DNA from: Centroscyllium fabricii
Taxonomy: Eukaryota
Assembly: GCA_051313645.2 (NCBI GenBank)
Contig: JBNRSN020000010.1
Coordinates: 16,430,001 to 16,494,000, forward strand
Direction: 5' to 3'
Length of the DNA stretch: 64,000 bases
Shown here: piece after piece, positions 12,560 through 55,063 of the stretch
Position numbering within the stretch: position 1 is the first letter of the stretch
Layout: the number at the start of each line of letters is the position of its first letter
Position numbers and translations under genes: made by a program
Notes under the pieces: generated by a model
What the model was told of the DNA's origin: nothing
Seen by the model: only the letters and a program-made list of their open reading frames with translations
The model's database searches: none

Positions 12560-15500
12560 ACGTAGTGCAGGAGTCCCCTGAGTCCTTCACTACCACCAAA
12601 AGATGTTCCGTCTTGGTGCTGATGCGGGAGACGGTTTCTAAGGGGAAAACTGCAGGAGCTTAATCCGTAACACTACGAGTGGCTCAGCTCCACAGGAGTG
12701 GAGGAAAGGGACTGTGAGAGTACATTGATAGGGGCATTATCGTAAGAGGAACAGATAGATGTTTATTTGGCCGCAGACGTGATTGCAGGATGGTATGTTT
12801 CCTCCCTGGTGCCAGGGTCATAATATCACTGAATGGCTGCACGGCATTCTGAAGCGGGTGGGCAAACAGTCAGCTGTCGGGTTTCACATTGCTAGCAACG
12901 ACATGGGTAGAAAGAGCGATGAGTTCCAGCAACAAGATTTAGGGAGCTGGGGAGCAGATTGAAAAGTTGGCCCACAAAGTTTGTCATCTCTGGATTACTC
13001 CCTGTGCTACGTGCTAGTGAGAATAGGAATAACAGGACGAGCAGATGAATGAATGGCTAAGGAGTTGTTGCAAGATGGAGGATATTAATTTCCTGGATAG
13101 AAACATAGAAACATAGAAACGAGGAGCAGGAGTAGGCCATTCGGCACTTCGAGCCTGCTCCGCCATTCAATGAGATCATGGCTGATCATCCAAACCCAGT
13201 ATCCCGCCCCTGCCCTCTCCCCATATCGCTATCGAGCCTGCATCAACACATATCCCACCCTATCCCCGTAACCCCACATATTCAATCGCCCTAACACTAA
13301 GGGTCAATTTATCATGGCCAATCAACCTAACCCGCACATCTTTGGACTGTGGGAGGAAACCGGAGCACCGGAGGAAACCCACGCAGACACGGGGAGAATG
13401 TGCAAACTCCACACAGATATTACCCGAGGCTGGATTTGAACCCGGGTCTCCAGTGCTGTGAGGCAACAATGCTAACCACTGTGCCACCGTGCCGCCCACG
13501 ATGACTGGGTCTGAACTGGGGAAGGTCGAATCTGGACATATCGGATGGATTGCACCTGAAACGGGATGGAACCAACATCTTTCTGGGGAGTTTTGCTAGT
13601 ATGTCGTGCGGAGGGGTTAAACCAACTTGCCATCAGATGGGATTTGAGTGGAACTACAGTAGCGAGTGACGCACTGCCAAATATAGTGGAAAATGCAAAT
13701 AAGCCTGGAAGGCAGATCAAATATATAACGACTCAAGCGAGTATGGCAAGGCTGGATGGCACTTATTTTAATGCAAATAGTCTTGCGTAAGGCAGATTAT
13801 TTGAAGTTGTTGATGAATATATGGGAGTATGATATTTTTGCTATCACAGAAACATGGTTGAGGGAGGGACTGGACTGGAAGATCAAAGTTCCGAGGTAGA
13901 GAAACTTCAGACGAGATAGAGGGGTGTGTTAAAGAGGAGGGGGTATCGCAATATTAATCTGAGTCAATTACTGCTGAAGTGGGAATTATATATTAGTATG
14001 TTCCACTAATGAGGTCATATGGGTAGAAATTAAAAATAAATAGGAGCCAAGCAGTTTGCTGCGAGTGTATTTTCGGCCCCTAAACAGTCAGGGGAGATAG
14101 AGGAACAGATATGTTGTCAAATCTCAAAGAAGATTAGAAGTAATAGTGTAATAGCAGTAAGATTAACAACTGCCCCATATTTGCTGCGATAATCAGAGTG
14201 TGAACGGCGTACAGGTTGCAGAATTCGTAAAGTGCATCCTGGAGTGGTTCTTGAGCCAGCATGTAGAAATTCCGACAAGGGAGGGAGCGGTACTGGACCT
14301 AATTGTATGGAATAGAGCGAGAAATGTGTTAGTAGTGTCAATAGGTGAGTATTTGCTGAAAATGGCAAAATAAAATGGCTACATTTAAGGTCGTCATGGA
14401 AAAGGGAAATCATGGACTGGAAGTAAAATTTATATATTGGTGGAAGGCCGATTTTAATATGATAAGGCAAGAGCTGCCGAAAGTGGACTGGGATCAGCTA
14501 CTTGTACGAATATCCAAATCAGAGCAATGGCAGCTTTTTCAGAAAGAATAGAGAAAGAGTAAACGCCAACATGTTCCTGTGAATGTCAAACGTGGGACCA
14601 ACAAGGTCAGGGAACCCTGGATGTCATGGCATATATAAAAATGGATTAGGAATGAAATGGGGGCTTTTGGCAGATAAAAAGTAGGAAAACATTGGAAGCC
14701 ATAGAGGAGTATAGAATGTGCAGTTGGTATTGAAAATAAATTATTAGAGCGAAGAGGCGGCATCAAAATACATAGGTGGGCAAAATTAAGGCAAATACCA
14801 AGGGATTTTATAAGTATATTAAGGGCAAGACGATAGCAAGGGAAAGAGAAGGGCCCATTAGGGACCAAATTGGCAATCGGTGTGTAGAGCTGCACGATGT
14901 TGGTGAGGTTTAAAATCAATATTTTCCAACTATGCTGACAAAGCAGAAGGGTGATGTCGGCATATCTATCAGGCAGGGGGATTGCAACATTCTTGAACAA
15001 GTTAGTATTGATGGGGAGGAGGTATTGGTGATGTTAGCGGGCTTTAAACTGGATAAATGCCCAGGCCCTTGCGAGATGTATCCCAGGCTGTTGTGTGACG
15101 CAAGGGAGGAGCTTGCAGGAGCTCTGACACAACGTTTCGAATTATCTCTTGACACAGGGAAGGTGCCCGCGTACTGGAGGACAGCTAACGTCGTGCCATT
15201 ATTCAATAAGTGTAGTAGCGATAAATCAGGGAAGTGCAGGCCAGTGAGCCATTACTCAGTGCTTGATACATTATTGGAAGTCATTCTCAGGGACAGAATT
15301 AATCTCCACTTGGAGAGACAAGGATCAGTCAGGGATTGTCAGCCTGGCTTTTTCAGGGGGAGCTCATGTCTGACGAAATTGATTGAACTTGTCGAGGGTG
15401 TGACTCGATAATTGGATGAGAACAGTGCAGTTGATGTAGTCTATATGAACTTCATTTAGACTTTTAACGACGCCCCACATGGGACACTTGACAAGAACGT

Positions 15501-18129: not shown

Positions 18130-21100
18130 ATATGCATTCCGTGCCGGCTGTCTCGAAGAGCAATCAATTCGGGCCCACTCCCCGCTCTTTTTCCATATCC
18201 CTGCAAATCTTTCTCCTTCAAATTGTTTGTCAATTTCCCATTTGAAAGCTACAATTGAATCGGTTTCCTCTACCCTACCAACAGTGCGTTCCAAGTCCTA
18301 ACCACATATTGCATCAACGTTTACCTTCATATCGCCTCTCGTACTTTAGACTAGTACTTTAATCTGTGCCCTCAGGTTATCGATTCATAATTCATTGGCA
18401 ACATTTTCGCTTTATTTACTCTATCTATATTTCAATCGTTCAGACTAATCTCTGTATAACATTTTCTGCTCTGAGGTGAACAATCACAGCTTCACTAACA
18501 TGACCACGTGACACTCATCCCTCGTCCCTTGAACAATTCTAGTACATTTCTTCTGTAAACTCTCCAAAGACTTCAGATCCTTCTGAAGTGTTGTGTTCAG
18601 ATTTGGACACAATATTCACGTTGATACCGATCGAGTGTTCGATACAAATTCCAAATAGGTCCCTGGCTTTTTACTCTATTTATAAAACCCAGGAACCCAT
18701 GTGCTTAAATAATTGCTTAATTAACATAAACAGATACCTTCAAATATTTGCACAAATGCGCTTAGCACACACTATTCCAGCAACCCTCCTCATTATTCCT
18801 ACTGAAATGGATCAGCTCACAATTTTCTGCGTTGAATTTCATATGCCATATGTGCACCCAGTGCACCAGACTGACTATGTCCTCCTGAAACTATTCCTAG
18901 CGTCCAACTGAAAATGTCGATATTATATCCTGTAAGCCCAAGTTCAAGCCAGTAATGTATGTATATATATATATTAGGAGTGGTCCTAGTACTGCATCCT
19001 GCTGAATAAAAATAAAAATTTCTCTCGATTCCAAAAACGAGCCATTCATCACAACTCTCTGAGTTCCATCCCTTTGCAAATGTTGTATCCATGGGGCAAC
19101 TGAAAATTATTCCACGAGTTTCAATTTTGCTATGTTATTTCTCAAAGCCTCTTTAAAGTCCATATTTACACTGTACTTCCATTTTCCACCCATTCTGACA
19201 CTTCATAACACAACTCCCTCAACAATGACCAAACAGGATTTTTCATTAACATACCATTGCAGGCTCTCCTTTATCAGTCCATGATTCTCAAAGTGGCTAG
19301 TAATCATCTCTGGGATTCCGCACCACAGACGTTAAACTGGCTTGTTTGTATTTGCCATCCTGTTCCCTTTTTTGAACAAAGAATCAACATTTACAATCGT
19401 CCTGTCCGTTGGCACAACCTCTGTAACTGGCAAGTTTGAACCATAATTGGATCAGTTGCAGGAATGAAAATGTAATGATTGACGGATGTTCTCGTGACTG
19501 GAGGTCTGTTTCCAATTGGGTTTCGCAGGCTAAATGGAAGGTCCCTTGACTTTTGTGGTGTATATCGTTGTTTTAGCATTCAAAGTAGGGATCATGATGA
19601 AGTCGTTTTATAGATGATACAAAAATAGCCGTGTGGTTGATAGTGAGGATGAAAGCTGTGGACTGCAGGAAGATATCAATGGCTGGGCAGATGGGCAAGA
19701 AAGTGGCAACTGGAATTCAATTGGTGAAGTGTGATGTAATGACTTTGGCACGGGCTAACACGCCAAGGTAATACACAATGAAATGTAGGATACTGAAGAA
19801 TGTAGAGGAAAAGTGGGCCTTTGGAGTACATGTCCACAGATCGCTGAAGGTAGCAGGACAGGCAGAAAAGTTTGGTTAATAAAGCATTATGGATACATTG
19901 ATTTATTAGCTGAACCATTACATATAAGAGCAAGAGACCTTGGAATGCATAAACATTAACTAAGCCACAGCGACAGTACGGCGTGCAGTTCAGGTCACCA
20001 TAATACATGGAAAACGTGATTGTGCTGGAGTCTGCGAGACGAGAGTTACGATTCTGTTGCCAGGAATTGATAAATTTACCTATGAGAAAAGATTGGATAG
20101 GCTGTGGTTGTCTTCTTTGGAACAGAGGAGTCTAAGGGGAGAATTGATGGAGGTGTACACAATTATGAGGAGGCTATATCAATCAGAGAGGAAAGCCTTA
20201 TTTATCCAGAAGATGGGGAAATAACAAGGGGGCATCGAGTTAATGTATTAGGTAGAAGGATTAGAGAGCAGATCAGGAGAACGCTGTTAAACTAGAGGGC
20301 AGTGTGGTTCTGGAGCTTACTACCTGAAAATGCGGTAGAGGCTGAAACACTCATTACATTTTAACAGTACTTGGATATGGACGTGAAGTGCTGTAACCTA
20401 CATGGCTACAGGGCAAAAGCTGGAAAGTGGAATCAGGCATAGTCGATCTTTTTCGACGGCACGTAATTGACTAGACAAATGGCCCCCTTCTGTGCCATAA
20501 ATCGATATGTATCTACTGAGGATTGAAAAAAAGTTGGGCAGCAATGCGGCAATTTCAACTTTACTTCCCTCAGAAAAATAGAATGGATCCCATCCAGACC
20601 GGATGACTTATCTACTTTAGCTAAACACAGTCTTTCTAGTACATCCCCGTTACCTGTTTTATCTCAGGTAGTATTCTACGTGTTTATCTTACCTTTGGCA
20701 ACGTCTTCTTCTGGGTAAACACTGATGCATAGTGCTCATTTAATACCTCAGAAATGCCTTCTGCATCTACCAATAGTTCATCATTTTTGCACAATTTGCC
20801 CTACCGCTCATGTGACAAAAAAAATATTTTAGTATGGCGACATGTGTAACGAGGTGTGGTGGAGCCCAAATGCAAAGACACTGAAAAGGCAGTCTAGGTC
20901 TTAGATACTTTTATATTACAAAACAGTAATAGAAAACATACATGCATACATTCCAAAATATATAAACATCTAAACAAGTCTTCAACAGAAAACTGGCACA
21001 AGCTTATTACAGTTGCTCATACAAAGTTAGAAACAGAAAACAAGTTCCTTTCAGAACTGGTACCAAACTTCCCAAAGTTGCGTGGAATGCTACGCAGCCA

Positions 21101-23540
21101 AGCGCATCATAGTGTAGTGAAATACATGTCCAACCCTGAATTCAGGTGGGTGCGAGCAATGTCCAGGATGTTGAATTTAGGAATACTCCCGAGTCCGCCC
21201 TACGGTCGAAACTCACTCCAACGGAGTCTTCAGAGGAAGAATCCATCTTCACAAACAAGGAAACTCCTCACATACCCAACTGAAACGTCCAAACCTCAGT
21301 TCGGGTGATAACGACCAATGTCCAGGAAGTAGATTCTGGATCTCTTCATAGTCCGCTCCACCACGGGGACTTAACCCAACGGAGTTCACAGAAAAGAGAA
21401 TACCTGATCTACTAGCAGGGGAACGCCCTTACTTAACAGATGGAATGTCCAAACCTGAGCTTCAGGTGGCAGAACGCAATGTCCAGAATGTTGACAACTG
21501 TAGTTCTCCGAAGTCCGCTCCACAGCAAGACTTACTCTACCCGAGTTTCCAGAAGAGAATACGTCATCCACAGGGCAGGGGAAGGCCCAAACCCATTGCC
21601 TCTCCAGCAGCTCAGAACAGCAACCACTCCTTCCAGTAGTTCGTAGTCAAAGAGTAGTAAGGAAATCCAATCTAATGATCCGGCACCTGCCTGGTCAAAG
21701 CACTCAGCTTATAAGCCAAACAGGCAAACCAGATCATTACTGCTAGCCAATAAGCTGCAGGTGTTGAGAACCAGAAACACGCAGGTATGTGAAACAGTTA
21801 AATAAACAGAAACAGAGAAACAAAACCTAGAATTCCAAGATGGATACCTTAAAGGGGTATGCCAACTGTGACAGAACCCCCCCCTCAAAGGACGACCGCT
21901 GACGTCCCAAGTACCCAAATACCGAAATAAGGTGGGTGCAGGGGTGCGGAGGAGGGACCAACCGTCGTCCAGGAATAAAGGACTCCAAGGAGCGCTAGAC
22001 GCTTCAGTGTCTGCTGGGCCCCTATTCTGGCCGGATCATTGTGTAACGAGGTGTGGTGGAGCCCAAATGCAAAGACACTGAAAAGGCAGTCTAGATCTTA
22101 GATACTTTTATATTACAAAACAGTAATAGAAAACATACATGCATACATTCCAAAATATATAAACATCTAAACAAGTCTTCAACAGAAAACTGGCACAAGC
22201 TTATTACAGTTGCTCATACAAAGTTAGAAACAGAAAACAAGTTCCTTTCAGAACTGGTACCAAACTTCCCAAAGTTGCGTGGAATGCTACGCAGCCAAGC
22301 GCATCATAGTGTAGTGAAATACATGTCCAACCCTGAATTCAGGTGGGAGCGAGCAAGGTCCAGGATGTTGAATTTAGGAATACTCCCGAGTCCGCCCTAC
22401 GGTCGAAACTCACTCCAACGGAGTCTTCAGAGGAAGAATCCATCTTCACAAACAAGGAAACTCCTCACATACCCAACTGAAACGTCCAAACCTCAGTTCG
22501 GGTGATAACGACCAATGTCCAGGAAGTAGATTCTGGATCTCTTCATAGTCCGCTCCACCGCGGGGACTTAACCCAACGGAGTTCACAGAAAAGAGAATAC
22601 CTGATCTACTAGCAGGGGAACGCCCTTACTTAACAGATGGAATGTCCAAACCTGAGCTTCAGGTGGCAGAACGCAATGTCCAGAATGTTGACAACTGTAG
22701 TTCTCCGAAGTCTGCTCCACAGCAAGACTTACTCTACCCGAGTTTCCAGAAGAGAATACGTCATCCACAGGGCAGGGGAAGGCCCAAACCCATTGCCTCT
22801 CCAGCAGCTCAGAACAGCAACCACTCCTTCCAGTAGTTCGTAGTCAAAGAGTAGTAAGGAAATCCAATCTAATGATCCGGCACCTGCCTGGTCAAAGCAC
22901 TCAGCTTATAAGCCAAACAGGCAAACCAGATCATTACTGCTAGCCAATAAGCTGCAGGTGTTGAGAACCAGAAACACACAGGTATGTGAAACAGTTAAAT
23001 AAACAGAAACAGAGAAACAAAACCTAGAATTCCAAGATGGATACCTTAAAGGGGTATGCCAACTGTGACAACATGAAACATTTGGTTTCCCTTTCTATGT
23101 TAGGCGTCAATTATTTTCGCACTGTCACTTTCCCTCTATTATTTCATGTTTCAATTCATCTCTTTGCTATTTCATATTCAACCTGATTCTCGCTTGTATT
23201 ATGAAGGTTCATCCTAGTCTAAACCCTTCGTAAACCAGGGAGCTGTAGCTTAGGTCACCCTCCCTTTCTCCCTTCTGGGAATCCACCTAGACTGTACCCG
23301 AAACATCTCTCTTTTAAAGTCCCTCCATTGTTCCAACATATTCCTGCCAGCCATACATTGACTCCAGTTTACCCGGGACACATTCCTCCTCAATTAACTG
23401 AAAATATCCCTCCTCCAGTGAAGTTTGTTTTTATTTTGTGTTGTTCTTCTCAATAGCTAATCTATACATTTTGATACTATGGTGACTATTCCCGAGATTC
23501 TACCCAACTGTGATATTCTCCACTTGACTCACTTCAATTG
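18130..23540. mobile_element. Mixed-orientation CR1 fragments (minus 18130-19460, plus 19470-20515, minus 20520-20844 and 23071-23540)
   Basis: Degenerate CR1 ORF2 and 3' UTR motifs; the last fragment is split by LTR element A. Confidence 0.7.
20845..23070 (-). mobile_element. Non-autonomous LTR retrotransposon, family A (Tf1/sushi-like Ty3/Gypsy derivative): LTRs 20845-21873 and 22042-23070 (1029 bp), internal 168 bp
   Basis: TG...CA LTR ends; 5-bp TSD ACATG on both sides; PPT GAGGGGGGGG next to the 3' LTR; PBS at 22030-22040; about 6 differences seen between LTRs; no coding capacity. Confidence 0.93.
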
Positions 23541-23719
23541 CCGAAGTGAAATGCAGCGGCAGCTGCCGACACAGCCCATTTCTCTGAAATACACTGAGAT
23601 TATCGAAAATCTGAATTCAGGCGGTGAGAAACTAACTTCCAATTTCAACAGCCCTGGCAGAAAAAACGGTAACAAAAATAAAGTATTGTATATATATATA
23701 TAGCACCGTTCTCCACCAC

Positions 23720-24432
23720 CGGACGTTTACATCCAATAAATGTTTATTTTTCAAGTATAGTCAAGTAGGAAAGGCAGCAGCAAATATGCAAACAGCAAAC
23801 ACCCACACGAAGCATCGTGATAATGACCAAATAAACAGTTTTCAGTGATTTTTTTGAGAGATCAATGTTGGCCAGGCCACCGAGTTTATTTCCCCTGCTC
23901 TTCTTCGAAATAGCGCCCAGGCATATTTTCAATACATTTAGAGGACCCTTGGGCTAATGTCTCAATATAATAGTGTTTCCATTTGTGGGGAATATCATAA
24001 CTGGAGGACATCAATATAAGGTGGTCACAAAAAAAATCACATAGGTAATTCAGGAATAAACGTCGTTACACAGAGAGTGGTGAGAATGTTGAACTCTCTA
24101 CCAAAGCGAGTGGTTGATGCCAGTAGTATAGATGGTTTTAAGGTGAGGCTGAACAAGGGAATGAGGAACAATGGAATTGAGACTTGTGCTGAAAAAATTA
24201 GTTCATCAAAGACTGGAGGGAATTCAAGTGGAGCATAAATGATGCATGGCCTGTTTCTGTTTCGCATATCCTTCGTAGCATATTTATCATCTGAAATACA
24301 CCACCTCCGACAGTGCAGCATTTCCCTGGAGTGGCAGCCAAGTTATGTTGTGCTCAAGGCTCTGGAGTGGTATTTTAACCGATAACCTTCTAATTCAGAG
24401 GCGAGAGTGCTATCAGCTGAGCTACGGCTGAC
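23720..24432 (-). mobile_element. SacSINE1-like DeuSINE interrupted by a CR1 3' fragment (~23975-24280); related tail at ~17900-18062 (+)
   Basis: Minus 5' end gtcagccgtagctcagctgatagcactctcgcctctg and Deu-like tgctgcactgtcggaggtg; family identity recalled from memory. Confidence 0.6.
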
Positions 24433-25389
24433 ATTAAAGGGGGGAAGAGTGAATTCAAAGCCCTGATATTTTTCTTCAATCCAAGCCCGAAAGGTATATA
24501 AATTAATCGTCACCGTTTATACAGAATATGTTTGGGATTTATTTATATATATACATAATTAATAACTCAGAGTCTCGCAATATCATAAGATAAGGCAACA
24601 CGGACAACTGATTCTAGTGCTTGATCAAAGTTCAGCCAAATTTCTCGGGTATGGTAATGTCTTACTTATTTTACTGGACTACTGTCTTTTAGCAATAATC
24701 CAGAGTACGCGAGCTGAAATCGCACCATATCAGCTTGAGAATTTAAATTCGGTTTCTGAAAATTCGAGAAATAAAAAGCTGACATCAGTAAAACGAATCA
24801 TGAAACAATCGGAATGTGTTACAAGCACAATTGTTTCACGGGTGTCCTTTAGAGAAGGACAACTGCATTACTTACCGCGTCTGGGCATCTGTGTGACTGC
24901 AGTCCCAAAACAACGTAACGGCCCCTCTGAAGTTGCCTGGTGAGCCTATCAGCTGTATCTAGGATAACTAGGGATGGGCATTAAATGCCGTTATTGCCAG
25001 CGATGCCCACATGCCTAGAATGAATACAAATAATTGAGCAGATTAATATGTTAATATGGTAATTGGTTTCCTAAGACAATGAACACGATTATATATTATC
25101 GTTCGGAGATTATGTTCAGATAATTGTCTCATCAGTGATTATTGAAAATCTACTGTACAATGTTAGCGACTATTCCTTCACTTCAAACGTTGAGTCTTCC
25201 GATAAAATAACTATCAGTACAGACAAAAGAAGCGTCTCTACACTGATATAACCAAGTTTAATATTCAGACTCATATTACACGTCAGCGTTCCTCCATTCT
25301 TTCCTTCAAATACCAGCTGTTTTTCACGGAACTGAACTGACGAAAACAGCTGCAGAGAAGATAAAATGTTTGGACTGTTGCTTTGAGAA

Positions 25390-25561
25390 GCTAGTGAGTG
25401 AACAGGGCCCAACTCCTCCCCCCACCCCGTCCCCACCGCCCCAGCTAACCGATCATATCAGTCACACCCCGCAGTGTTAATCAAGTGTCCAGTCAGAAAG
25501 GCTCGTGAGCTCCGAACGAGGAGGCAGCGTCCCAATCGATGACAGATACTCACGGGTAAGT
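25390..25561 (+). promoter_or_regulatory. Putative MS4A promoter and non-coding exon 1 (donor cacgg|gtaagt after 25555)
   Basis: C-rich GC/CACCC-box tract ~25412-25443, consensus donor, and an aligned donor-like caccg|gtacgt in the inverted paralogue near 9145. Confidence 0.55.
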
Positions 25562-27425
25562 TAAGGCGTCTTCATATTGACCATGTAATTCATTTTACCA
25601 GAGACATGGATTATGATGTGATCAATGGGGGACATTTAAATGTTGGGCGATGGTGTGAAATGGGCGTTGTGAAATTAGCCGCCCGTTACAAGCCTGCCAG
25701 ATATCCCTTTCCATTGAGATTAATTGAATGGAAAACCTGGCGGAGGGGGGGGGCGGGGGTTATCGCCCATTCTATTCTGCCCCTCAATGTAAAAATTGCC
25801 CCAACGTTTATCGAATAGTGAATTTTTTTCTACATAAATATTAAGGTATGTTATGCGATTGATAGATAACTTCAGTCCGAAATTATCGATTGTGATCCTA
25901 CCCACAAATGTAATCCAACCATTATATTCACTGTCACACGAACACACAATGTGTGCTCAGGAAATAGAAGATTAAAGAACAGATGCTCGGTCAAACCTTC
26001 CCTCACCACGATGGCTGGGGCGCCATGCACGTCCCCAACTCACACCCCGCAGCCATGTAATCTCCTGGGAGTGGCAAAACAACCAGAGTAAAAAGCTCTT
26101 CACAAATAAGGAAAAGGTAAGCTGGAATAAAACCCTGCGCCCCACTCAGACGATCAATAACAGTTCATGAGATCAGATGTAAAAATACCATTTTAAGTGA
26201 TAAGAATATCCTGCTGTACTGATTGTGGATTGAAATTCCGAGCTGTGGTTGTAAACATCACGACCGCTTATATAATCATCATAGAATAGTACAGCACAGA
26301 CGAAGGCCATTCGGCCTTCGAGTCTGTGCAGCACCCGGAATTTATGGATGAGATCTTTATTTACAGAGCGTAGGTATCAGGTTTCAAACCTGGTATTTTT
26401 GCTCAGATTTGTTTATGCAATTGGCTTGTTTCCAAGTAAAACACCGACAGGACCCCGCTTGACTGACTGGCCCGGCTTTTTGCGTTGTAACTCCTATGTA
26501 ATATATGTATCTATCTGCTTCTTGCAGCAATGTTGTTTGTAACGAAATAACTAAATAACAATGCCTTTTTGCGGTCATGTAGTTTTTTGAAATTAGGAGA
26601 ATGACGCTATTTGCTCTGAAATCTGCCTCTCCACGACAAACACAATGAACATGTCCCGTAAGAATATGTGTGCATACTGATTATTCAAATTGCGTTTACC
26701 ACAATGTAGACGTAAACGTACCGGTTAACATTCAGCTGAAATCAGACTCTCATTTTAACATTGATGTAATTACATCACTAATTAGTTGAATATTAGTGTA
26801 ACCGCATACATTAATCACACATGGTATGATGTGCTTTATTATTATAAAAATAAAGTGCGGTTTGAACTTAAATGAGGAGATGTTCGCCAGGCTGTCTCGA
26901 AATAATTGCCTAGGTTTGAATGGAAATTGGTTTTGTTTGGAAATTATAGCGAAACACACGATAAATGTCGATGCTTGCGATTTCAGGTCAAATATCAGTC
27001 AGAATAAAGGGCTTCACCAACGCAGAAAAAATATGGCGATCGATTTGGCCCCAATACATTGCCCCGACTAGAAGTCCAATCGGGGTAGAAAGTTTCCCTC
27101 AGAACTTTAATTTTTCGGGTTTTTTTAAGTGAATTATTAAAGTCCACAGCTTATAATTCATGAAAACGAGCGTTCGTCAAGATTCAAATGTAATACCCTT
27201 ATGAACATGACATGAAGGTGTCATTTTGATGGGTTCAATCGAATTTTTAGAAAATAATTGGAGATTCGGTGACAGGAAGGTTAAATGTCACACATTAGCT
27301 TTGCCAGATTTTAACATTACAACTAGCATTCTTTGGTCATTATTAATTCAAATGTTGGCATCCTAATGGCAGTGGAACCACCTTCTTATTCACGAAGAGT
27401 CGATTGTCCAGTCATTATTTGGATC

Positions 27426-27590
27426 ATGGCAACTTCACTGAGCATGGAAGAAATCCTCGTCAGTCCCAATATTAACCCACAATCCGGTACGAGGGAAGCC
27501 TTGGAGAGACGGACAGGATCACTGACTCCTTCACCAAACAGAAGCGTGAACAATCCAGGAATACAGATGGGAAAACCGAAAGTTCTGGGT
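27426..27590 (+). CDS. MS4A: MS4A first coding exon (cytoplasmic N-terminus, 55 aa)
   Basis: Acceptor ttgtccag|27412, strong Kozak context (gatcATGG) at 27426, ends ...GKPKVLG|gtaaga. Confidence 0.88.
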
Positions 27591-30500
27591 GTAAGATGAA
27601 AGCATGTATTTTATTCATTTTTTTCCGTCCCAAGTAGATGACAATTTCAACATGCAATATTTTGCTTTCAGGACACCTTGAGTAAAATGGTGTTCAGTCG
27701 CTATGTCTAGGGAAATCATCAATTAGCTGATGGAGGTTAGTTCCCGCAAGACACTTCGCGAAATTATAAACAACTTCAGTGTGATCACATGTACAATTTC
27801 GCTGGGACTAACAACTGGAATTATGTCCCTTAGTATCATTATGGGCTATTATTTTATAAATTATTTCTGTGGATATGGGTCTCGTTAGCAATTTCAACAT
27901 TTACTTCTCAGACAATTTCCACTTGAGAAAATCGTAGTGCCCCTTCTGGTTGAGCAGCTGCAAAATATGATATGAAGGTACTCCCACAGTGCTGTCAGCC
28001 GAGTAGCTCAAAGTTTATAATCCAATGACAATGAAGGAACGGCGGATGCATGTCAACGTCGGGATTGTGTGTGTGTTTGAGGGGAATTAATGATATGCCC
28101 AGGGTCTGCTGCCCTTGTCATTTTAGATGTGAAGTTTGCGGTCTTGTGCGATGAAGTTTTAGAATTCTAAGCGATTTGCTGCAGTGCATTCTGTAGTTAG
28201 TGCACACTGTAGCCACGATGCGCCGGTTCTGGAGTGAGTGATTATTTACTGTGGTCCACAAACATATAGCTTTTGGAGAATTTCCTCCAGAGCCATTGTC
28301 ATAACAAAAGATTGCTTGTCTGGCGACAAAAAAATCAGCTCATGAGACACCCTCGAGCTTTTTAAAATAATAACAAGCTTTATTACATTGAACTATAACA
28401 ACATTACAATTTAAATACAGTTTCATAGTAAATGACAGAATGAGATGTAAATTATAAAAACTGGTTCCCCAGACGAGTGATCACTTTCGGCGCTAGACCT
28501 ATTGCATGTCCGCTGGCTCGCAACTGACCCTGACCCTTCGAACTGACGCTGAAAATCTCCCACCCGAGATAACCACACAGCCCGTGTTCCCCAGGCGAGG
28601 AGCGAACAGTCCCATCCCTGCATGCCATCCGCACGGATGCGTGCATCCTGACCAACCAGAGAAAGTTCTGCCTTCGTGGCAAACAGTGTATATTCTTAAA
28701 CCATAATACAGACTTGGTCTCTGTCTACGTAATCCATATTTGCACATTTTGCCGTGGCCAACTTTTCAGGTGATTACCCCGCTTTATGAGCTAAACATTC
28801 GACTCGAGCAGTGACGCAAAACGGGCGATATCAGGTGGGGGGCTGGTGTTCATAGCGCCTGAAATTCAGCTCCATTGCAATTAATGGGACTGAACATAAC
28901 TGCGGATAACTTGGCCGCCGATCCGATACCTCACATTTCTATCATGCCCGCAATGAATTTCAAGGCACTTTTTCGAAGCTTGCCTGTTTACAAATTGTCT
29001 TTAAAACGCAGTAAGTAGATACATGTTTATATTTTACTGTGGTATAGGGTGTCATGGCCTGTAAGAACATAACAACAGAACAAATAGAAGCCCGAAAATG
29101 CCCGTCGGCTTTTCGAGCCTGCTCCGCCATTAAATGAGATTAAGGCTGATCTCCTGCCTCAACTCAATCACCGGCCCCATCGCCATATCGCTTGCTGCTC
29201 TTACAAGTCCGAAATCTATCTACTTCTGCTTTTAATATACACAATGTATGAACCTGCATAGCTTCATTGATTTACCATCCTCGGCATGAAAAACATTCTT
29301 CTCATCTCAGTCCTAATTGCCCTACCCTTTATTTTGAGGCTGTGGCCCATGGTTCTAGACTCCCCAGAAAAGGGATACTTTCTCCCAGCATCTAAAATAT
29401 CAAGTCCTGTATTAACTGTATATTCTTCAATTAGTTCCCCTCTCATTCTTCTGAATTCAAGAGAGTAAATGCCTACTTCATTCAATCTCTTCCAATATGA
29501 GAGTCCCGCCATCCCAGGAATCAATCTCCTGAAAGTTCGTTGCACTATCTCTATGGCAAGTATATCCTTCCTTAGGTAAGGAGACCAAAATTGTTCACAA
29601 TACTCCTGGTGTCGTCTCAAAAAGGCACTATATACATGGAGTAAGACATGTTTTCTCCTGTACTCAAATCCTCTTGTAATAAAGCCCAGCCGACCATTTA
29701 CCTTCGTAATGGCTTGCTGTACTTGCACGTTCAATTTCAGTGACTCATATACAACTACACCCAGGTCCCTTTAGCACCTGCATTCCCCAATGTTTCATCA
29801 TTTAGCAAGTGCTCTGCCTTTCTATTTGTTCTACGAAAGTGGATAACTTCACATTTGTCCACCTTTTATTCCATCTGTTACTTTCTCGCCCAGTCCCTAA
29901 GCAAGTGGAGATCCACCTGAAGCCTCTTCACATCCTTTTTAAAATGACACTGCTAAATATATTCGTATTGTCAGCAAATTTGGAAATGTAACATTTCGTC
30001 CACTCTTCCCAATGATTCAATAGATTGTGTATATCTGGGTCCCAAGCACGGATCCTTGCGGTACCGTACGAGTCACAGCTTACGATGCTGAAAATGACCC
30101 GTTTAGCCCTGTCACAGGGTGCCTTTCCCTTTAAGGATTCAAGACAGATAGGTTGTGTGCAGCACACCTGTTTTGAAGACTTGTTCCCCTGTTATTCAAC
30201 TATTATATCAATTAACGGTTTCACATGCCTGTGTGTTCCTGGTTCTCATTGCCTGCTGCTTATTGGCTAACACTAAATAATCTGGTTTGCCTGTTTGGGC
30301 TTATAAGCTTGATGCTTTGTCCAGGCAGGGGCGGGATCATTGATTGGATTGACTTACTACTAACTACTGGAAGAAGTGGTTGCTGTTCTGAGCTGCTGGA
30401 GAGGCAATGGGTTTGGGCTTTCCCCTGCCCTGTGGATGACGTATTCTCTTTGGGAAACTCGGTTAGAGTGAGACTAGCTGTGGAGCGGACTTCTGAGAAC

Positions 30501-33500
30501 TACAGTTGTCAACATTCTGGACATTGCATTCTGCCACCTGAAGCTCAGGTTTGGACATTCCATCTGTTAAGTAAGGGCGTTCCCCTGCTAGTAGATCAGG
30601 TATTCTCTTCCTCAGAAGACTCCGTTGGAGTGAGTCTCGACCGTAGGGCGGACTCGGAAGAGGTCCAGAATCTACTCCTTGGACATTGGTCGTTATTACC
30701 CGAACTGAGGTTTGGACGTTTCAGTAGGGTATGTGAGGAGTCTCAATGTTTGAGGATGGATTCTTTCCTTCTGAAGACTCTGAAGAGATGGGTTCCAGCT
30801 TTAGGGCGGACTCTGGGAGAGTTCCATTACTCATCCAAGACATTGCTCGCACCCACCTTGATTCAGGGTTGGACATATATTCCACTATACTATAATGCAC
30901 TTGGCTGCGTAGCATTCCACGCAACTATGGGAAGTTTGTACCAGTTCTGAAAGGAACTTGTTTTCTGTTTCTATCTTTGTATGTAGCAACTGTAATAAGC
31001 TAGTGCCAGTTTTCTGTCGAAGACTTGTTTAGATGTTTAATATATTTTGGTATGTATGGATGCAATTTATTAGGGTTTTTGTGATTTATAGTTCATTAAA
31101 GGAGTTTAGCTCTAGAAAGCCGTTTCAGTGTCTTTGCATTTGGGCCCACACCCCACCGTTACAAGCCCTATACTTTGCTTTTTGTCTGCTAACTGATTCT
31201 CAATCGATGCAAGCCTATTACACCCCATTACACGTGCCCTCATTTTATTCACCATCCTCTTGTGTGGGAACTTATCGAAGGCCGTCTGAACATCCAGTTA
31301 AACCACATCTATCAGTTCCGCTTTGTCTACACTAGTAGTTGCATCCTCAATAACTCCAATACATTTAACAAACATGATTGTCCTTTCATAAATCCATGTT
31401 GCCTCTGCCTAATCGTAAAATGAATTTCTAAGTCCCCAGTTATTCCATTATTTGTAATAGATTCCAGCATTTTCCCAAATACTGATGTGAGGCAAACAGG
31501 TCTGTTGTTCCTCGTTTTCTCTCACCCTTGATTCTTAAATTGCGGGGTTACTGCACAATTTGTTTGTCACAGTTTGGCATAAGAATCAAACAAATAGGCT
31601 GACTCAAACGTGGCTAACAAGGGAAATTAAGGATAGCATAAGATCCAAGGAGAGGGCATATAAATTGGCCAGAAAAAACGGTAACCCTGAGGATTGGGAG
31701 CAGTTTAGCATTCAACAAAAGTAGGACAAATGTAATAATTAAGAAGGGGAAAAATGGAATATTCAGATAAGATTTCAGTGAACATAAAAACTGACTGTAA
31801 AAGGTTTTATAGTTATGTGAAGAGAAAAAGATTAGTGAAACCATGTGTAGGTCCCTTGCAGTCAGAAGCGTGGGGAGTTACAATGGGGCACAAAGAAATG
31901 GTAGATCAATTCAATGCATATTTTGATTCTGTCTTCCTAAAGGAGAACACAAAAACCTCCCAGCGATGTTGGAGAGCATACTGTCTGATGAAAGGGAGGA
32001 ACTAAAATAACTCAGCATTTGTAGGGAAATGTTGTTAGGGAAACTGACGGTTTTTAAGTCCGATTAATCACTACTGCCTGATACTCTATATGTAACGGTC
32101 GAGGTGCGGGGTCCAAATGCAGTGACACTGAGAGAATGGTCTAGATCCTAAAACCCTTTAATATACAAAACATGTTACAAAAAGACATACATATCAAAAC
32201 ACTAGTCTTTGCTAAAGACAGGCACAAGCTTCATACAGATATTTAACCCCTCGAGACACTCAGTAAAGAGAATCTTAAATACAGAAAGGGCCTAATAAGA
32301 TGTGGTAATGAAAAGTCCAAATGATGAAGGCAGATGATGCAACAATGTCCTGACCTCTGGAACACTCCTCCTAGAGTATCCCTATCAATGGTCTTTAGGT
32401 GGTCATCCTCAGAACTACCAGAACTCAACCAAGAGCAAACCGGATATCCAAAAGGCCTCATTGCTGCTGGAATGAAGTATGATTGTAACAATGTCCTGAC
32501 CTCTGGAACACTCAACCAAGAGCATCCCTATCTATGGTCTTTGGGTGGTCATCCTCAGAACCTTCTGAACACCCACTCAAGAGCATCCAGGAAATAAAGA
32601 GGGCCTCATTGTCCCTAAGGTGAATATGTGATTGTAACAATGTCCCGACCTCTGGAACACTCCTCCTAGAGTATCCCTATCTATGGTCTTTGGGTGATAA
32701 TCCTCAGGTTTTCAGAACTCAAACAAGAGCAAACCGGATCTCCAAAGGGCCACATTGCCACTGGAAAGAAGTAAGCAAAGTCCATGAAGTAATGTTGAAA
32801 GTCCAAACCTGAAACAGGCAATGAAGCACAGTGTCCAGAATTTAGGGTATAGAAATCTTCCAAAGTCCCCTGTTCAACAGGGACCCATCTCTTCCAGAGT
32901 CTCCCGAAGAAGAAATCCAACCCCACAGCTCACTGCCTTCCACGGAGACTAGAAACACCTCCTGTGTCCTAGTCCTGCAAAGTGTTACTTGCTCCCATAC
33001 TTGAGTGTAGAGCTCTTGTTAAGGATCCAGCAACCTTCTGGTGAAAACCTCCAGCTTATAAACCAAAACTGGCAAGCAGACAATTTAGGTTAACCAACCA
33101 GCTGCAGGCACTGACAACTTAACACACACAGAAATGAGAACAAGCAATTGAGGCAATTAAACAATACCAAGTAACAAAACCAGAAACCAAAGATGGCTAC
33201 CTTAAAGGGGTATACACCTTAAAAAGGTATGCCAACTGTGACAGAACCCCCCCCTTAAAGGACGACTGCTGACGTCCAAAAGTACCCAAATACCAAAAAA
33301 TTAAGGTGGGTGGAGGGGTACGGAAAAGGAACCAACCGTCCTCCAAGTATAAAAAGAATAAAAGGAGAGCTAGACGCTTCAGTGTCAGCTGGACCCCTAA
33401 TCTGGCTGGATCCTTCTGTAACGGTCGAGGTGCGGGGTCCAAATGCAGTGACACTGAGAGAATGGTCTAGATCCTAAAACCCTTTAATATACAAAACATG

Positions 33501-36500
33501 TTACAAAAAGACATACATATCAAAACACTAGTCTTTGCTAAAGACAGGCACAAGCTTCATACAGATATTTAACCCCTCGAGACACTCAGTAAAGAGAATC
33601 TTAAATACAGAAAGGGCCTAATAAGATGTGGTAATGAAAAGTCCAAATGATGAAGGCAGATGATGCAACAATGTCCTGACCTCTGGAACACTCCTCCTAG
33701 AGTATCCCTATCAATGGTCTTTAGGTGGTCATCCTCAGAACTACCAGAACTCAACCAAGAGCAAACCGGATATCCAAAAGGCCTCATTGCTGCTGGAATG
33801 AAGTATGATTGTAACAATGTCCTGACCTCTGGAACACTCAACCAAGAGCATCCCTATCTATGGTCTTTGGGTGGTCATCCTCAGAACCTTCTGAACACCC
33901 ACTCAAGAGCATCCAGGAAATAAAGAGGGCCTCATTGTCCCTAAGGTGAATATGTGATTGTAACAATGTCCCGACCTCTGGAACACTCCTCCTAGAGTAT
34001 CCCTATCTATGGTCTTTGGGTGATAATCCTCAGGTTTTCAGAACTCAAACAAGAGCAAACCGGATCTCCAAAGGGCCACATTGCCACTGGAAAGAAGTAA
34101 GCAAAGTCCATGAAGTAATGTTGAAAGTCCAAACCTGAAACAGGCAATGAAGCACAGTGTCCAGAATTTAGGGTATAGAAATCTTCCAAAGTCCCCTGTT
34201 CAACAGGGACCCATCTCTTCCAGAGTCTCCCGAAGAAGAAATCCAACCCCACAGCTCACTGCCTTCCACGGAGACTAGAAACACCTCCTGTGTCCTAGTC
34301 CTGCAAAGTGTTACTTGCTCCCATACTTGAGTGTAGAGCTCTTGTTAAGGATCCAGCAACCTTCTGGTGAAAACCTCCAGCTTATAAACCAAAACTGGCA
34401 AGCAGACAATTTAGGTTAACCAACCAGCTGCAGGCACTGACAACTTAACACACACAGAAATGAGAACAAGCAATTGAGGCAATTAAACAATACCAAGTAA
34501 CAAAACCAGAAACCAAAGATGGCTACCTTAAAGGGGTATACACCTTAAAAAGGTATGCCAACTGTGACACTATATCCTAGTATACTTAAGGAAGTGGCTC
34601 TAGAAATATTAGATGGATTACTGATCATCTTTCAGAAGTCGCTTAAATCTGAAACTGTGCCAATGATTGGAGGGTAGCTAATGTTACCCAGGTATTCAAA
34701 AATGGTGGTAGAGAGAAAACAGGGAATTACAGACCAGCAAGACTGACATTATTGTGGGGAAAATGCTAGAGTCCATTATAAAGGATGTAGTAGCTGTGCA
34801 CTTGGAAATCAGTGACAGTGTCGGACAAAGTCAACATGGATTTACTAAAGGTAAATCATGATTGACTAATCTATCGGATTTTGTTGAGGCTGTAACTGGG
34901 AAAATACATAAGGGTGAACCAGTACATTTGGTGTATTTGGACTTTCAAAAGGCTTTCTTAATATCCAGCATAAGAGATTAGCGTGTAAATGTATGGCACA
35001 TTGAATTGGGGGCAAGGTAACGACTTGGATAGAAAACTGGTTGGCGGACAGAAAGCAGAGTGTAAGAAATAACGGGTGTTTTTCCGAGTGGAAGGCAGTG
35101 ATTAATGGGGTACCGCAGGGATCTGTCCTTGTACCACAGCTACTCACAATATACATTAATGAACTAGAGAAGGATACTAGATGTGATATATCCAAAGCTT
35201 GCGGACGACACAAAGCTGGGTGGGCGTGTGTGCTGCGAGGAGGATACCGAGAAGCTCCAGGATGATTTGGACAGGGTGTGTGATTGGGCAGAATCCTGGT
35301 GAATGCAATACAACGTGGATAAATGCGATTATCCACTTAATGTCAAAAACAGAAAGACAGACTATTACCTGAATGGAAATAGATTGGGAGACGGGCAGAT
35401 GAAACGAGACCTGGGCGCTCTTGTGCACCAGTCGTTGAAGGTAAGCATGCAGGTGCAGCCGGCAGGGAAGAAGGCGAATGGTATGTTGGCCCTCATTGCG
35501 AAAGGGATTGAGTACATGAACCAAGATGTCTTGCTGCAGTTTTACAGGGCCTTGGTGAGACCACACCTTGAGTATTGTGTGCAGTTTTGTTCGTCTTATC
35601 TGAGGAAGGATCTTCTTGCCATGGAAGGAATTCAGCGAAGGTTCACAAGGCTGATACCTGGAATGGCAGGAATAACGTGTGATGCGCATTTTTGATCGAT
35701 TAGACTTATACCCGCTGGAGTTCAGAAGAATGAGAGGGGATCTCATCTAAACTCATAAAATTCTGACTGGTCTGGTCAAACTAGAAGCAGGAAGAATGTT
35801 CCCGATTGTCGCAGAGTCCAGAAGCAGGGGCACAGTCCAAGGATAAGGGGTAGGCCAGTCAGGACGGATATGAGGAATAATTGATTCACCGAGAGAGTGG
35901 TGAACCTGCGAAATTCTCCACCACAGATTGTAGTTGAGGCCAAGCCATTAATTTTATTGAAGAAGAAGATAGGTATAATTTGAAGATCGTAAGGTATCAA
36001 GGGATATCGGAAGAAGGCAGGAACTTTGTACTGAGTTTTGACGATCAGCCATGATTTTATCGAATGGTGGAGCAGGCTTGGGGGCCGAACGGACCGCTCC
36101 TGTTCCTATCTTCTATATTTCTCTGTTTCTATGTTATATTGTCTATCGTTACAATATACAGGAACCTTTCCCGAATCTATAGAATTTAGCAAGATGCAAC
36201 CAATGCGTTCACGATTCCAAAGGCCACCTCTTTCACTACCCTAGGATGTAAGTCATCCTGTCCTAGGGATTTGTCGACTTTTAGTCCAATTAATTTTCCT
36301 AGTGCTGTTTTTTTACTAATAAAATATTCTTTACGTTCCTCATTCTCGGCACATCCTTGGCTTTCTCATATTTCTGTCAGGATGTTTATGTCTTCCTCCG
36401 TGAAGGCAAGATCAGAATATGTTTTCAATATCACAGCCATTTCTTCATTTCCCATTTAAAACTATCGCGATTCAGACTGCAAACGGCATAGTTTTACCTA

Positions 36501-39500
36501 CACCAATGCTTTCCTTTTCACACATCAATAGAAGCTTTTACAATACGTTTTTATATTTTTCGCCAGTTAATATTTTCCATTGCTTTGTCAAATTGTTGGT
36601 CCCCATTTGCTCATATCTGAACATATTCCAATGCACAGGTTGACCGCTTTTTCTGGCAACTTTAAAAGCGTCCTCCTTTGTCTTAATACTAGCTTTTCCT
36701 TCGTTTGTTAGCTATTGTTGGATCACTTTTCATTTTGGGTTTCTATGCCTACAATTATCATTTAAAAATGGTTCACTACCTGTTTTCTTTCAATCAATTT
36801 GTGTCCTTGCATTTGCAAACAGTTTACTGTTGATAGCGAAAGACAAGAATCGCGTTCCCCTTTCTCCCACATCTGCTCTAAGACTAAAAATCAAATCAAT
36901 AAAATGCTCGGACTCCTTGACCATTATAATGATCTTATAGCTTTCTAAAAATTAGCTAATCGAATCACCTCAAACAACTTTCAACAAAGCTTTTCTTGTC
37001 TCTTACCTTGATCTCTCTCTCCTCCTTTCCCACGGTCTCCATCTCTCACCCCCTCTCTCTCGCTACCTCTGCCCTCTCTCACTTTGACACACATTGTTAT
37101 ATTCTGTACGATTTTATACATGTTAGCTTTGTTTCCCCAGTGCGATACTTCTCCTGTTTCAGGTTATTCAGATTCTGTTGGGATTGATTTTCTTAATAAT
37201 CTGGATGCTTTTTATGATGAGTCCGATATCGGTGACAGGAACGCATAGAACATACTGGAGTGGCGAGCTATTGGTGAGTTTCTGTCTTATATCCATAGTA
37301 GAATATATTTGGGGGAATTTAAATCTGGTCAGAATTGATTGGATGAGACGTCATACCGTTTTATTAATTTGAAGTATTGCCGTGTAACACTTTGCTGTAA
37401 TATTCCTCCGATTGTCGCTATTTTCTCGCAGGCATCAACTATTCTAAACCGAATAACATTTATGTCAAAAATAGCGAACAAACAGACGAATGAGAATGCC
37501 GAAGGTAAAGGCAGAGGCAATAATGTCTGCACCCAAATATATGCAAATCACTTTATTTATCGATATCGTTATTTATTTATTGCTGTCGTTTTCAACATTT
37601 AGAACATAAAATTATAAGAAATAGGAGCAGGATTAGGGTCCTTTGGCTCTTCGAGCCCGCTGCGCAATTAAGTAAGATGATGGCATCTTCTACCTCATCT
37701 CAACTTTGTTGCAAAATCCACATGTCCCTTAATTCTCTCAATATTAAACAAATCTATCGATCACTATTTTGAATATACTGCGCCACTGAGCATCCACAGC
37801 CCTCTGGGGGAGAGTATTCTAAAAATGTACCACCCACTGAGTGAAGACGTTTCACATAATTTCAGTCCTAAATGGCTGAACCGTTATTCAGAGACTGTGA
37901 CCCTTGTTTCTAAACACCCCAGCCAGGTGAAACAGCCTCCCTGCATCTAACCTGTCGGGCCTGTAAGGATTGTTAATGTTTCAATGAGATCACCTCTCAT
38001 TCTTCTAAACTCTATAGAATATCGGCAGAGTTTACACGATCTCCCGCATAAGACAATCACTCTATCTATGGAAACATTCTGGTGACTCTTCGTTGCAGTC
38101 ATTCTATGGTTGGTATATCCTTCCTCAGGTAAGGAGACATAAACTGTACGCAATAATCCAGTTGTGGTCTCACCAGGGCCCTATACGATTTCAGTTAGAT
38201 TGCCTGTGAATAATCAGCCAGAAAATTATGCTTCAGAATTGAAGACACTTGTTATAGTTTACCAGAATTGCTAAACAAATTTTTATTACGAGTACGATTT
38301 GCAAAGACTTGATCTTTTTTCCCTCGGGTATAGAAGATTAAGCGGTCATCTGACTAAGGTGTTTAAGATAATTAAATTATCCATTTCAAAGACCAACATC
38401 TGAGTGGGTGAGTCAAGAAAATAACCTTTAAATTAAACATAGAACATAGACTTATACATAGAAACTAGGAGCAGGAACAGGCCATTCTGCACTTCTAGCC
38501 TGCTCCGCCATTCAATGAGATCATTACTGATCATCCAAAAACCCAGTATCCCGCCCCTGCCCTCTCCCCATATCCCTCGACCCCTATCGAGCCTGCACCG
38601 ACACATATCCCACCCTATCACCATAACCCCACATATTAAATCCCCCTAACACTAAGGGTCAATTTATCCTGGCCAATCAAACTAACCCGCACATCTTTGG
38701 ACTTTGGACTGTGGGAGGAAACCGGCACCCGGAGGAAACCCACGCAGACACTGGGAGAATGTGCAAACTCCACACAGATAGTACCCGAGGACCGGATTTG
38801 AACCCGGGTCTCCAGTGCTGTGAGGCAACAATGCTAACCACTGTGCCACCGTGACCAGTGCACGACCAGTCAATGCTGTTCCATGTAGGGGTCAATTGAA
38901 AATTTTAAAGCTAAGGCTGATCGATGTACGTTAAACGATTACGGAGCCAAAGCAGGTAAATTAAGTTACGTTACAGATCAGCTATAATCTAATTAACTGG
39001 CGGCACAGTTTCGAGTGGCTGAATGACCTAGTTGCGAATCGCTGTTCCAATACATAGGCTTTAAATTGTGGAATTGATATGTCACATTTATTTCACAGTT
39101 TCTTATTTCTGGGAGCCTGTGGTGTATTGTGGAAAAAACATCACCTACAGGTCTTGTAAGTATCTCAACAATGACTCTCCATTTAAACAAATCCGTCCAT
39201 TGCCAGGATATTACTCTAATTTGAAATAGTGGATGCTGTGCGGATTATGTACGTGCTGGAAACGTTGCCTTTAACTGGGATTGTTCAGATAAGTGGTACC
39301 CCGTATAATTGGGTGGTTTCGGTGATGAAATTGGAGAATTGCAGGGTGGTAAACCAAGCAGTCGTGCATTGGTCACTGATTAGTCATCCGGTCCCATATT
39401 CAGTTTAATTGATTTCTTAACCGATACTGACTGTATTACACTCACAGGGGTAATATTTGGTCATCATAAGTGGTAAAACGAGTCGCCAGTTCGCTGTAAT

Positions 39501-53250: not shown

Positions 53251-55063
53251 TGATGATAAATGCGTCATCCGTCCTTCAATACTACCGCCCGACTTTCATA
53301 CAATTGGCCTAATCTGGAGGAGAATATAGTCTAATTCTGGGAATTATCGCCGAGCCGAACATACGCTCAAAGACATCGGCCAGAAGCTCACTGAAAATTG
53401 GGCTTCACGCGTTCTCCACATACAATCTGCCAGCTTCAGACGACAATTGTCTGATGCTGCTCATTGGTCGAACCACAGGCAAATTGGGCTGGCGTGGACA
53501 GCGATTCAGACCTTTGGGAAGGGAGGGATGCAAAGGAATCAAGGTGAGCCCAGGTCGTAATCCTGTACCAGCTGACTGCAACTTCAGCCAATCAAAAACT
53601 TGTTTTTACATGCCTTCCGTTGGCGGCCTTTCCAAGATCCAATTAAGGTCCATTACAGACAGAGAGAGGAGAAATTATAACGGGGAATCAGCAAATCGCA
53701 GTGGCATTAATCAAAAATGTATGTCTGTCCTCACCAAGGAGGACATTACAAACATTCTGGATATAGTAGGGATATACTGATCTAGTGGGGATGAGAAACT
53801 TAAAGAAATTATTTTTTGTAATGAAGGAGACTGGAGAAATTAGTGGGACTAAAGGCTGAATAATAGAAACATAGAAGATATGAGCAGGAGTAGGCCATTT
53901 GGCCCTTCGAGCCTGCTCCGCCATTCAATGAGATCATGGCTGATCATCCAAACCCAGTACCCTGTCCCTGCCTTGTCTCCATATCCCTCGATCCCGATCG
54001 AGCCTGCACGACACATATCCCACCCTATCCCCGTAACCCCACATATTCAATCCCCCTTGAAATTGCTGGCCGACAACCTACGTCGTTAAATGAGCTGCCT
54101 AAAGATATAGTGGATGCATTGGGTTTGGTCTTCCAGAAATTCCTAGATTTACTGCTCATTGGAAAGTGTCAAAAATACCGCGATATTCCAGAAAGGAGGA
54201 AGAGGGAAAATTGGGCAGTACAGACCAGTCAAGACTGACATCAATAGTAGAGATAATGCAAATAAAGTTAATCTATTATTTGGGACATGGTAACTTGACA
54301 CTCAGGAAATCATAATGGCCCATGAATTCGGACCGGGGGCTTCCCGCGGGTGCTAGATTGTGACCTGCACTCACATTGTGCGCCGGCTATTGAGCTGTGG
54401 GCCCGCGTGCTATTCTGATCCTGGGCCGCCTCCAACTGCCGGTGCAATATGCGTACATATGCAAGGGGCTCCGTAAGTTCGATTCATCCCTGGGATCATG
54501 TGGACAATGGAGAGATAATGGTAGCTGGGACTGGTTCACCTTGAAGTTTGACAGGAAGAGCTATCAAACCGAGCTATATTATAAGCACCAAAAAGTAATT
54601 AAAATTACAAATATATATTTTTAAATCAAATATTTTAAATAACTGTAAATTACATGAAATAACTATTTTAAATAATAATATATAATTTTGAATACATTAA
54701 TTACATCTTCTAAATGGGCTAAAAATTAAATTTGCCTTTATTTTAAATATTTGAAGAAAATATAACTCTGGCAAAAATATTTTACTTTTAATAAATTCAC
54801 CGCTTACCTTGTGAGAAGCAAGCCTTGCACTTGATTTTTCATATGTAACTCCTGGAGACTTGCGCTCCAGGAGAAAGCTGCAAAAAAGCGCACGCGCTGC
54901 CTCTCCACGCATGCATTCGACCTATCAGCACCTTCTTTTAGGGCAACGGAAGTTCCGGTTTCCCGCGCACGCGCAGTGCATACACGAAACCAGCACTGTC
55001 GTTTGTCCTACGGGTGATTAACCTGCGCGTAGTCACTTGTTAGGTCATGAATTGCAGGTCATT

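Follow-up and report, generated by a model that had tools for sequence, protein, structure and literature searches.

Non-coding LTR retroelements of Centroscyllium fabricii with a primer-binding site that matches the predicted 5' end of their own RNA

The window analysed here, a 64,000-nucleotide stretch of Centroscyllium fabricii DNA (assembly GCA_051313645.2, contig JBNRSN020000010.1, positions 16,430,001 to 16,494,000 of the forward strand), carries two retroelements with long terminal repeats (LTRs), elements A and B, that belong to a family of miniature elements (minis) dispersed through the 7.2-Gb genome assembly. We conclude that the minis lack genes and arose by internal deletion from a chromodomain Ty3/Gypsy element of the Tf1/sushi type, and that they very probably prime reverse transcription with the 5' 11 nt of their own RNA and depend on helper proteins provided in trans. 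Self-priming of this kind is described for Tf1 (PMC7175516, 10.1101/2022.12.06.519325, PMC11042837); in the portions of these sources available to us, experimental proof is confined to fission-yeast Tf1 and the mechanism is only proposed for vertebrate relatives.

Primer-binding sites and the LTR of the same element

An initial annotation of the window had assigned to each element an 11-nt primer-binding site (PBS), AATGATCCGGC in A and AAGGATCCAGC in B, complementary to an 11-mer within its own LTR, GCCGGATCATT and GCTGGATCCTT, respectively. The six coordinates given for PBS, 11-mer and TATA box all read exactly as listed, with a TTATAA box 24 nt ahead of the 11-mer in both elements. To these we added minis and coding relatives from the genome, giving 209 LTR/PBS junctions that represent 175 distinct contexts, in which the LTR site was picked by its TATA-like motif only and the PBS was not used (1-3.5 candidates per LTR, offsets 28-30). 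The PBS and the TATA-anchored 11-mer form 11/11 Watson-Crick pairs in 137 of the 175 distinct junctions; a further 14 are complete with G-U pairs, 15 have one mismatch, and 9 are worse or have no site. In an unselected sample, drawn from the 100 contig-C1 places that head the list and excluding 20 planned loci (137-207 Mb), 37 of 55 junctions are perfect, 9 are complete with G-U pairs, 5 have one mismatch and 4 are worse. The offset from the TATA-like box is 29 nt in 164 of the 166 matching junctions and 30 nt in the other 2, and a shuffled PBS reached 11 pairs in only 1 of 8,750 trials. The TATA-anchored test excludes a match by chance.

That A and B differ from each other on both partners at once had been pointed out before, and this pattern extends to eight perfect primer/PBS types (47, 31, 27, 9, 9, 6, 4 and 4 junctions), six of them beyond A and B. 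Each type matches itself only, every cross pairing producing 1-5 non-Watson-Crick pairs. As read from the cross-pairing matrix, joining the eight types takes at least nine substitutions that are matched on the partner; they affect 7 of the 11 positions, and four are transversions. When primer and PBS are kept out of the tree building, nine type changes are required and type C appears at two places in the tree. Type C was predicted before its PBS was seen. A solo LTR between A and B, absent from the initial annotation and a third member of the same clade, has an 11-mer GCGGGATCATT that differs from those of A and B at an equal distance from its own TATA-like box, and the PBS it predicts was later found in other copies, 6 of the 7 distinct C junctions fitting with at most one mismatch.

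The extent of the conserved segment is sharply defined. Over 22 mini subfamily contexts, the share of the commonest letter is 0.74 at positions -22 to -1, 0.94 at +1 to +11 and 0.43 at +12 to +22. Within the 11-mer of the eight types, G1 and UU10-11 are invariant. The constraint stops at base 11, where Tf1 RNA is cut. The PBS lies one nucleotide past the 5' LTR, and this spacer is G in 174 of the 175 junctions, and C only in the A copy of the window.

A second conserved feature, absent from the initial annotation, is a stem of 19 pairs between U5 and the leader that encloses the PBS. Among 46 representatives, 820 of 870 cells are paired and two-sided changes occur at 6 pairs; in the window copies the stem has z values of -3.2 and -3.4. 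Its energy is -39.8 kcal/mol in 27 minis versus -30.1 in 19 coding elements, the rows not being independent, and in the coding elements the leader arm doubles as the start of gag. As the PBS lies inside the loop of this stem, a helix between primer and PBS would be a pseudoknot.

Descent, spread and window features

A genome search for the Gag family DUF4939 returned 21,882 candidates, of which 150 were scored. The chromovirus population is thus very large, and it includes several young families with near-identical LTR pairs. In 17 of the 20 stretches fetched around DUF4939 matches, we found a match to the last ~96 internal bases of the minis, just before the 3' LTR. Full-length relatives are ~5.5 kb long and encode Gag, protease, reverse transcriptase (RT), RNase H, integrase, SH3 and chromodomain. 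The top matches of their Gag region are 61-70% identical, those with names being teleost elements, Takifugu included, and the best solved relative is Ty3. In the closest coding lineage, represented by 5,652 exact junction matches, gag begins directly after the PBS, and the leader of the minis is its decayed gag start (42 of 48 bases). The internal part of the minis reads as a dead gag start joined to the 3' untranslated region (UTR) and polypurine tract (PPT) of a fish-type chromodomain Gypsy element that is abundant in the genome. Types A, B and C hardly ever precede a gag ATG (11 matches, each of type A, versus 5,652 for the helper-lineage pattern); therefore, the primer of the minis differs from that of the lineage likeliest to mobilise them. 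The 11 type-A matches are explicable through CpG decay of type D.

Deletion intermediates have internal lengths of 0.37, 0.69 (to the first PPT-like match) and ~2.0 kb. The shorter ones (loci L202 and L232) are non-coding. The longest are ~3.06-kb elements (L171:518-3573, L172, L178, L179, L107) with a 5-bp target-site duplication (TSD), LTR pairs up to 100% identical and a single open Gag-protease-chromodomain frame of 638-659 amino acids that lacks RT and the integrase core. Since this frame stays open, we suggest that they form a second dependent class under selection for making its own capsid. A further short Gag-protease class (L099, L103, L104) has a primer type of its own, AACGAACTGGC / GCCAGTTCGTT, together with a box of the TATTA type.

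In a tree of the 3' UTR and U3 of 31 of 104 representatives, from which primer and PBS were excluded, the A, B and C minis are split off together by a branch supported at 100/98, and the intermediates adjoin. A and B, presented earlier as two families, are subfamilies of a single clade; the two elements match at 145 of 173 columns inside and at only 660 of 1,188 in the LTRs. The core matches, the chromodomain relatives with their teleost-like Gag, the intermediates and the tree bear out the sushi-like Gypsy parent that had been proposed. The Gmr1 group was also considered, as the LTR ends fit both the Gmr1 and the Sushi motifs (as given in the accessible parts of PMC3601003; LTR motifs and background also in PMC2864245), and was rejected because in the coding relatives RT and RNase H precede integrase and a chromodomain is present.

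An exact 23-base internal motif has 2,476 genome matches (control 0) and the B-type LTR/PBS junction has 416, both being lower bounds in which tandem units are counted. We examined the 30 top loci each for A and B, 30 loci with a C LTR, and the unselected sample (n = 57). Most minis are 2.0-2.6 kb long, with an internal part of 166-175 bp and LTRs of 685-1,428 bp. Complete single copies are flanked by a 5-bp TSD (at most one mismatch) in 20 of 20 cases for A, 23 of 27 for B and 33 of 35 in the unselected sample, and the four B exceptions have 6-bp TSDs. Altogether, 6-bp TSDs were seen in four B copies and one A-type copy (L032, L036, L045, L051, L213); an unprocessed spacer base, considered for these five copies with off-register flanks, was ruled out, as they are plain 6-bp TSDs. 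Recent mobility, inferred initially from the window, holds for the family: the B LTR pairs are identical in 21 of 29 complete copies (median 100%), and the median LTR identity is 99.4% in both A (21 complete copies) and the unselected sample (47 complete). Tandems of the form LTR-core-LTR-core-LTR account for 12 of the 47 unselected complete rows, some arrays being counted twice. Of the 27 C LTRs measured, 15 stand alone and are flanked by a TSD. Two arrays on contig C1 (111.73-112.04 Mb and 226.72-227.07 Mb) have a spacing of ~50 kb, each unit holding a mini and often a tandem pair; here segmental duplication spread minis after insertion.

Features of the elements in the window are collected in Table 1. 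The LTRs of A are identical at 1023 of 1029 positions and flank an internal part of 168 bp; that of B is 173 bp. That both LTRs exceed the ~0.5-0.6 kb of the coding relatives is largely because of degenerate tandem units in a long R region, of 159-161 bp in A (21128-21494, 22325-22691) and 146-149 bp in B (32334-32773, 33660-34099), the number of which differs between copies. The elements are non-coding, as first annotated: the longest sense ATG frames have 34 and 72 amino acids, and a Pfam scan of two stop-to-stop LTR frames (136 and 244 amino acids) gave no match. An Rfam scan of 20000-35500 gave a single weak match, outside the elements and under its gathering score, and found no ribozyme and no tRNA or 5S piece in the LTRs; therefore, identity as a retrozyme or as a Cassandra-like or Helenus-like element was ruled out.

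Table 1. Positions of elements A and B, the solo LTR and their parts in the window
Feature	Position	Strand	Remark
Element A, whole	20845..23070	-	2,226 bp; 5-bp TSD CATGT
A 5' LTR	22042..23070	-	1,029 bp, TG...CA; predicted U3 189 bp; R+U5 840 bp including three degenerate ~160-bp repeats
A TATA-like box (TTATAA)	22906..22911	-	conserved over 22 subfamily contexts
A predicted self-primer	22871..22881	-	GCCGGATCATT; predicted first 11 nt of RNA
A AT-rich motif resembling poly(A) signal	22106..22114	-	64 nt from LTR end; putative function
A U5 arm of U5-leader stem	22058..22094	-
A PBS	22030..22040	-	AATGATCCGGC; 1 nt past LTR, inside stem loop
A leader arm of stem	21995..22022	-	degenerate first gag codons of coding relatives
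A remnant of chromovirus 3' UTR with PPT (21877-21889)	21874..21969	-	81-82 of 96 bases as in closest coding relatives
A 3' LTR	20845..21873	-
Solo LTR, type C	30110..31163	+	85% identical to A LTR; TSD AGCCC
Solo LTR TATA-like box	30301..30306	+
Solo LTR primer-type 11-mer	30331..30341	+	GCGGGATCATT; complement is PBS of full C copies at other loci
Element B, whole	32091..34569	-	2,479 bp; 5-bp TSD TATAG
B 5' LTR	33417..34569	-	1,153 bp; U3 predicted as 212 bp, R+U5 as 941 bp containing repeats of 146-149 bp
B TATA-like box (TTATAA)	34382..34387	-
B predicted self-primer	34347..34357	-	GCTGGATCCTT
B U5 arm of U5-leader stem	33434..33470	-
B PBS	33405..33415	-	AAGGATCCAGC
B leader arm of stem	33370..33397	-	degenerate gag start
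B PPT	33247..33259	-
B 3' LTR	32091..33243	-	identical to B 5' LTR

The window also holds an inverted repeat at 44147-44366 (106-bp arms, 96% complementary, 8 nt between), LINE-like coding fragments at 4113-5135 and 46896-49224, and many copies of a dispersed short repeat ending in (AGAAACAT)n (13100-13380, 38445-38735, 42363-42643, 53858-54056, 59207-59487 and others). These may be of CR1/SINE type.

Proposed mechanism and competing explanations

By analogy with Tf1, RNA polymerase II would start at the first G of the 11-mer. The 5' 11 nt of the RNA could then enter the loop of the U5-leader hairpin and form a pseudoknot spanning 0.5-1.1 kb, in which the helper's RNase H would cleave after base 11. 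The 3' terminus left by the cut, UU in every case, would serve as primer for minus-strand DNA, beginning a single base away from where the LTR ends. During plus-strand synthesis, which would start at the PPT, the primer would be copied, an altered primer base being thereby written into the PBS, and the helper integrase would insert the new copy with a 5-bp TSD. Such copying would explain why both partners change together, and covariation need not then mean two separately selected mutations. Whether it arises by copying or by selection, the covariation points to the 11-mer as the primer.

Several observations weigh against this proposal. The nine junctions with no good TATA-anchored match include some with a broken 5' LTR or a decayed TATA box, and the junction filter demanded AA-like starts, so that odd PBSs may escape. 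Three of the nine matched substitutions are CpG-type transitions, a frequent class. The LTR body of the minis was found in no sampled coding element, and several full-length families, all of them candidate helpers, match the mini core about equally. Nested folding, by a program that handles no pseudoknots, favours the U5-leader hairpin and thereby leaves the primer-PBS helix with a probability of 0.0 in A, B and C; when the whole leader is folded, the minimum-energy structure contains this helix for 4 of 9 coding elements and for none of the 3 minis. The third duplex of Tf1, between the region just 5' of the PBS and R, was not found in any of 40 representatives, minis or coding (z >= -2.2). 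The folding result and the missing duplex argue against an RNA structure taken over unchanged from Tf1.

It is conceivable that a host RNA, such as a tRNA half or another small RNA, binds the PBS and that the LTR match is a by-product, since half-tRNA priming occurs in copia groups (available parts of PMC6317226 and PMC10886601). As stated at the outset for A and B, a TGG of tRNA type is lacking, being present within the first 7 nt in none of the 175 junctions. Our search for a complementary host tRNA scored 63 genes and gave a best match of 7-8 of 11 among the 20 fetched, a narrow test because all 20 are Lys-TTT or Cys-GCA and thus span two isotypes only. However, each of the eight PBS types follows its own LTR, and a host RNA leaves the 29-nt TATA spacing and the end of the match at base 11 without a reason; we regard this explanation as very improbable. 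Somewhat less remote, but still improbable, is that the pairing is a real RNA structure serving packaging, dimerisation or template switching, with priming by other means. What we observe is the pairing, from which cleavage and extension are deduced, and the third Tf1 duplex is missing; against this stand the position at the PBS, the length of 11 with its sharp end, the lack of an alternative primer site, and the description of self-priming as a rule in the group to which the minis belong (10.1101/2022.12.06.519325, accessible part).

The match could also be an inherited relic in elements that spread by DNA-level duplication or recombination and not by reverse transcription, as the tandem rows and the two ~50-kb repeated arrays would allow. 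Nevertheless, single copies carry TSDs, identical LTR pairs occur, and types A, B and C arose within the mini clade with both partners changed. The TSDs and these mini-specific compensations largely refute spread at the DNA level, to which we give very little credence. Self-priming with helper proteins in trans remains by far the most probable account of the minis.

Somewhat speculatively, self-priming may free a parasite from the primer of its helper, which would fit the private A, B and C pairs, a stem strengthened after the loss of gag and pairing over a loop as long as 1.1 kb. In that case, a single RNA family without genes could exploit whichever self-priming chromoviruses the genome contains, and the joint change of primer and PBS would record the copying of the primer in each cycle. 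We consider this extension possible but rather doubtful.

The eight self-matching pairs, the sharp boundary at base 11 and the invariant G1 and UU10-11 amount to a natural mutagenesis series in one genome, which gives strong comparative support for animal self-priming and specifies the base to be expected in cap and cleavage data. From the minis, a minimal cis set can be defined that consists of the PBS, the U5-leader stem and ~96 bases ahead of the 3' LTR, and they show which changes occur in a parasite that needs neither tRNA nor gag.

Comparison with known systems

The minis share with Tf1/Tf2 (S. pombe), Tj1, Tosmo1-3 and the Tf1/sushi group (sushi-ichi, Takifugu) an LTR-adjacent PBS that pairs with the 11 nt predicted to begin the RNA, a duplex between PBS-adjacent sequence and the LTR, and a 5-bp TSD; the Gag-PR-RT-RH-IN-chromodomain order of that group is found in their coding relatives. 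They differ in having no coding capacity and thousands of copies, in a primer sequence unlike that of the helper lineage, and in a primer-PBS distance of 0.5-1.1 kb, where nearly all coding relatives in this genome have 0.26-0.47 kb. Two of Tf1's three 'pretzel' duplexes were detected in the minis, that between the region 3' of the PBS and the LTR being the 19-bp U5-leader stem. According to the available part of PMC11042837, about half of Tf1 cDNA ends in the copied PBS, and tandem elements arise at existing copies. A non-autonomous Tf1/sushi family was not found in the full-text literature, searched mostly without subscription journals, and an earlier Repbase or Dfam entry is quite possible.

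Like TRIMs/SMARTs (Cassandra, Helenus, Ajax, PbTRIM, biv-TRIM), the minis are non-autonomous, have two LTRs and a short PBS+PPT core produced by internal deletion, and form tandem arrays and solo LTRs. TRIMs are described as shorter than 1 kb, with terminal repeats of 100-250 bp and a tRNA-type PBS (PMC6934838, PMC10886601, in the parts available); at 2.2-2.5 kb in the window and with LTRs of about 0.7-1.4 kb, the minis are too long, and their PBS matches the element itself where that of a TRIM matches a tRNA. In the accessible descriptions, biv-TRIM has no canonical PBS but a self-primer was never proposed, and self-complementarity was sought in Helenus and not found.

Self-priming has also been predicted in plants for Tcn1 (gypsy) and TAR (copia), in which at least 10 bases past the LTR are complementary to the LTR (PMC6317226), the same prediction criterion as used here. 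These are autonomous plant elements, and the part of that paper available to us reports no covariation series. The self-priming mechanism is known for the Tf1/sushi group; what is new in the minis is a non-autonomous variant with unusually good comparative evidence.

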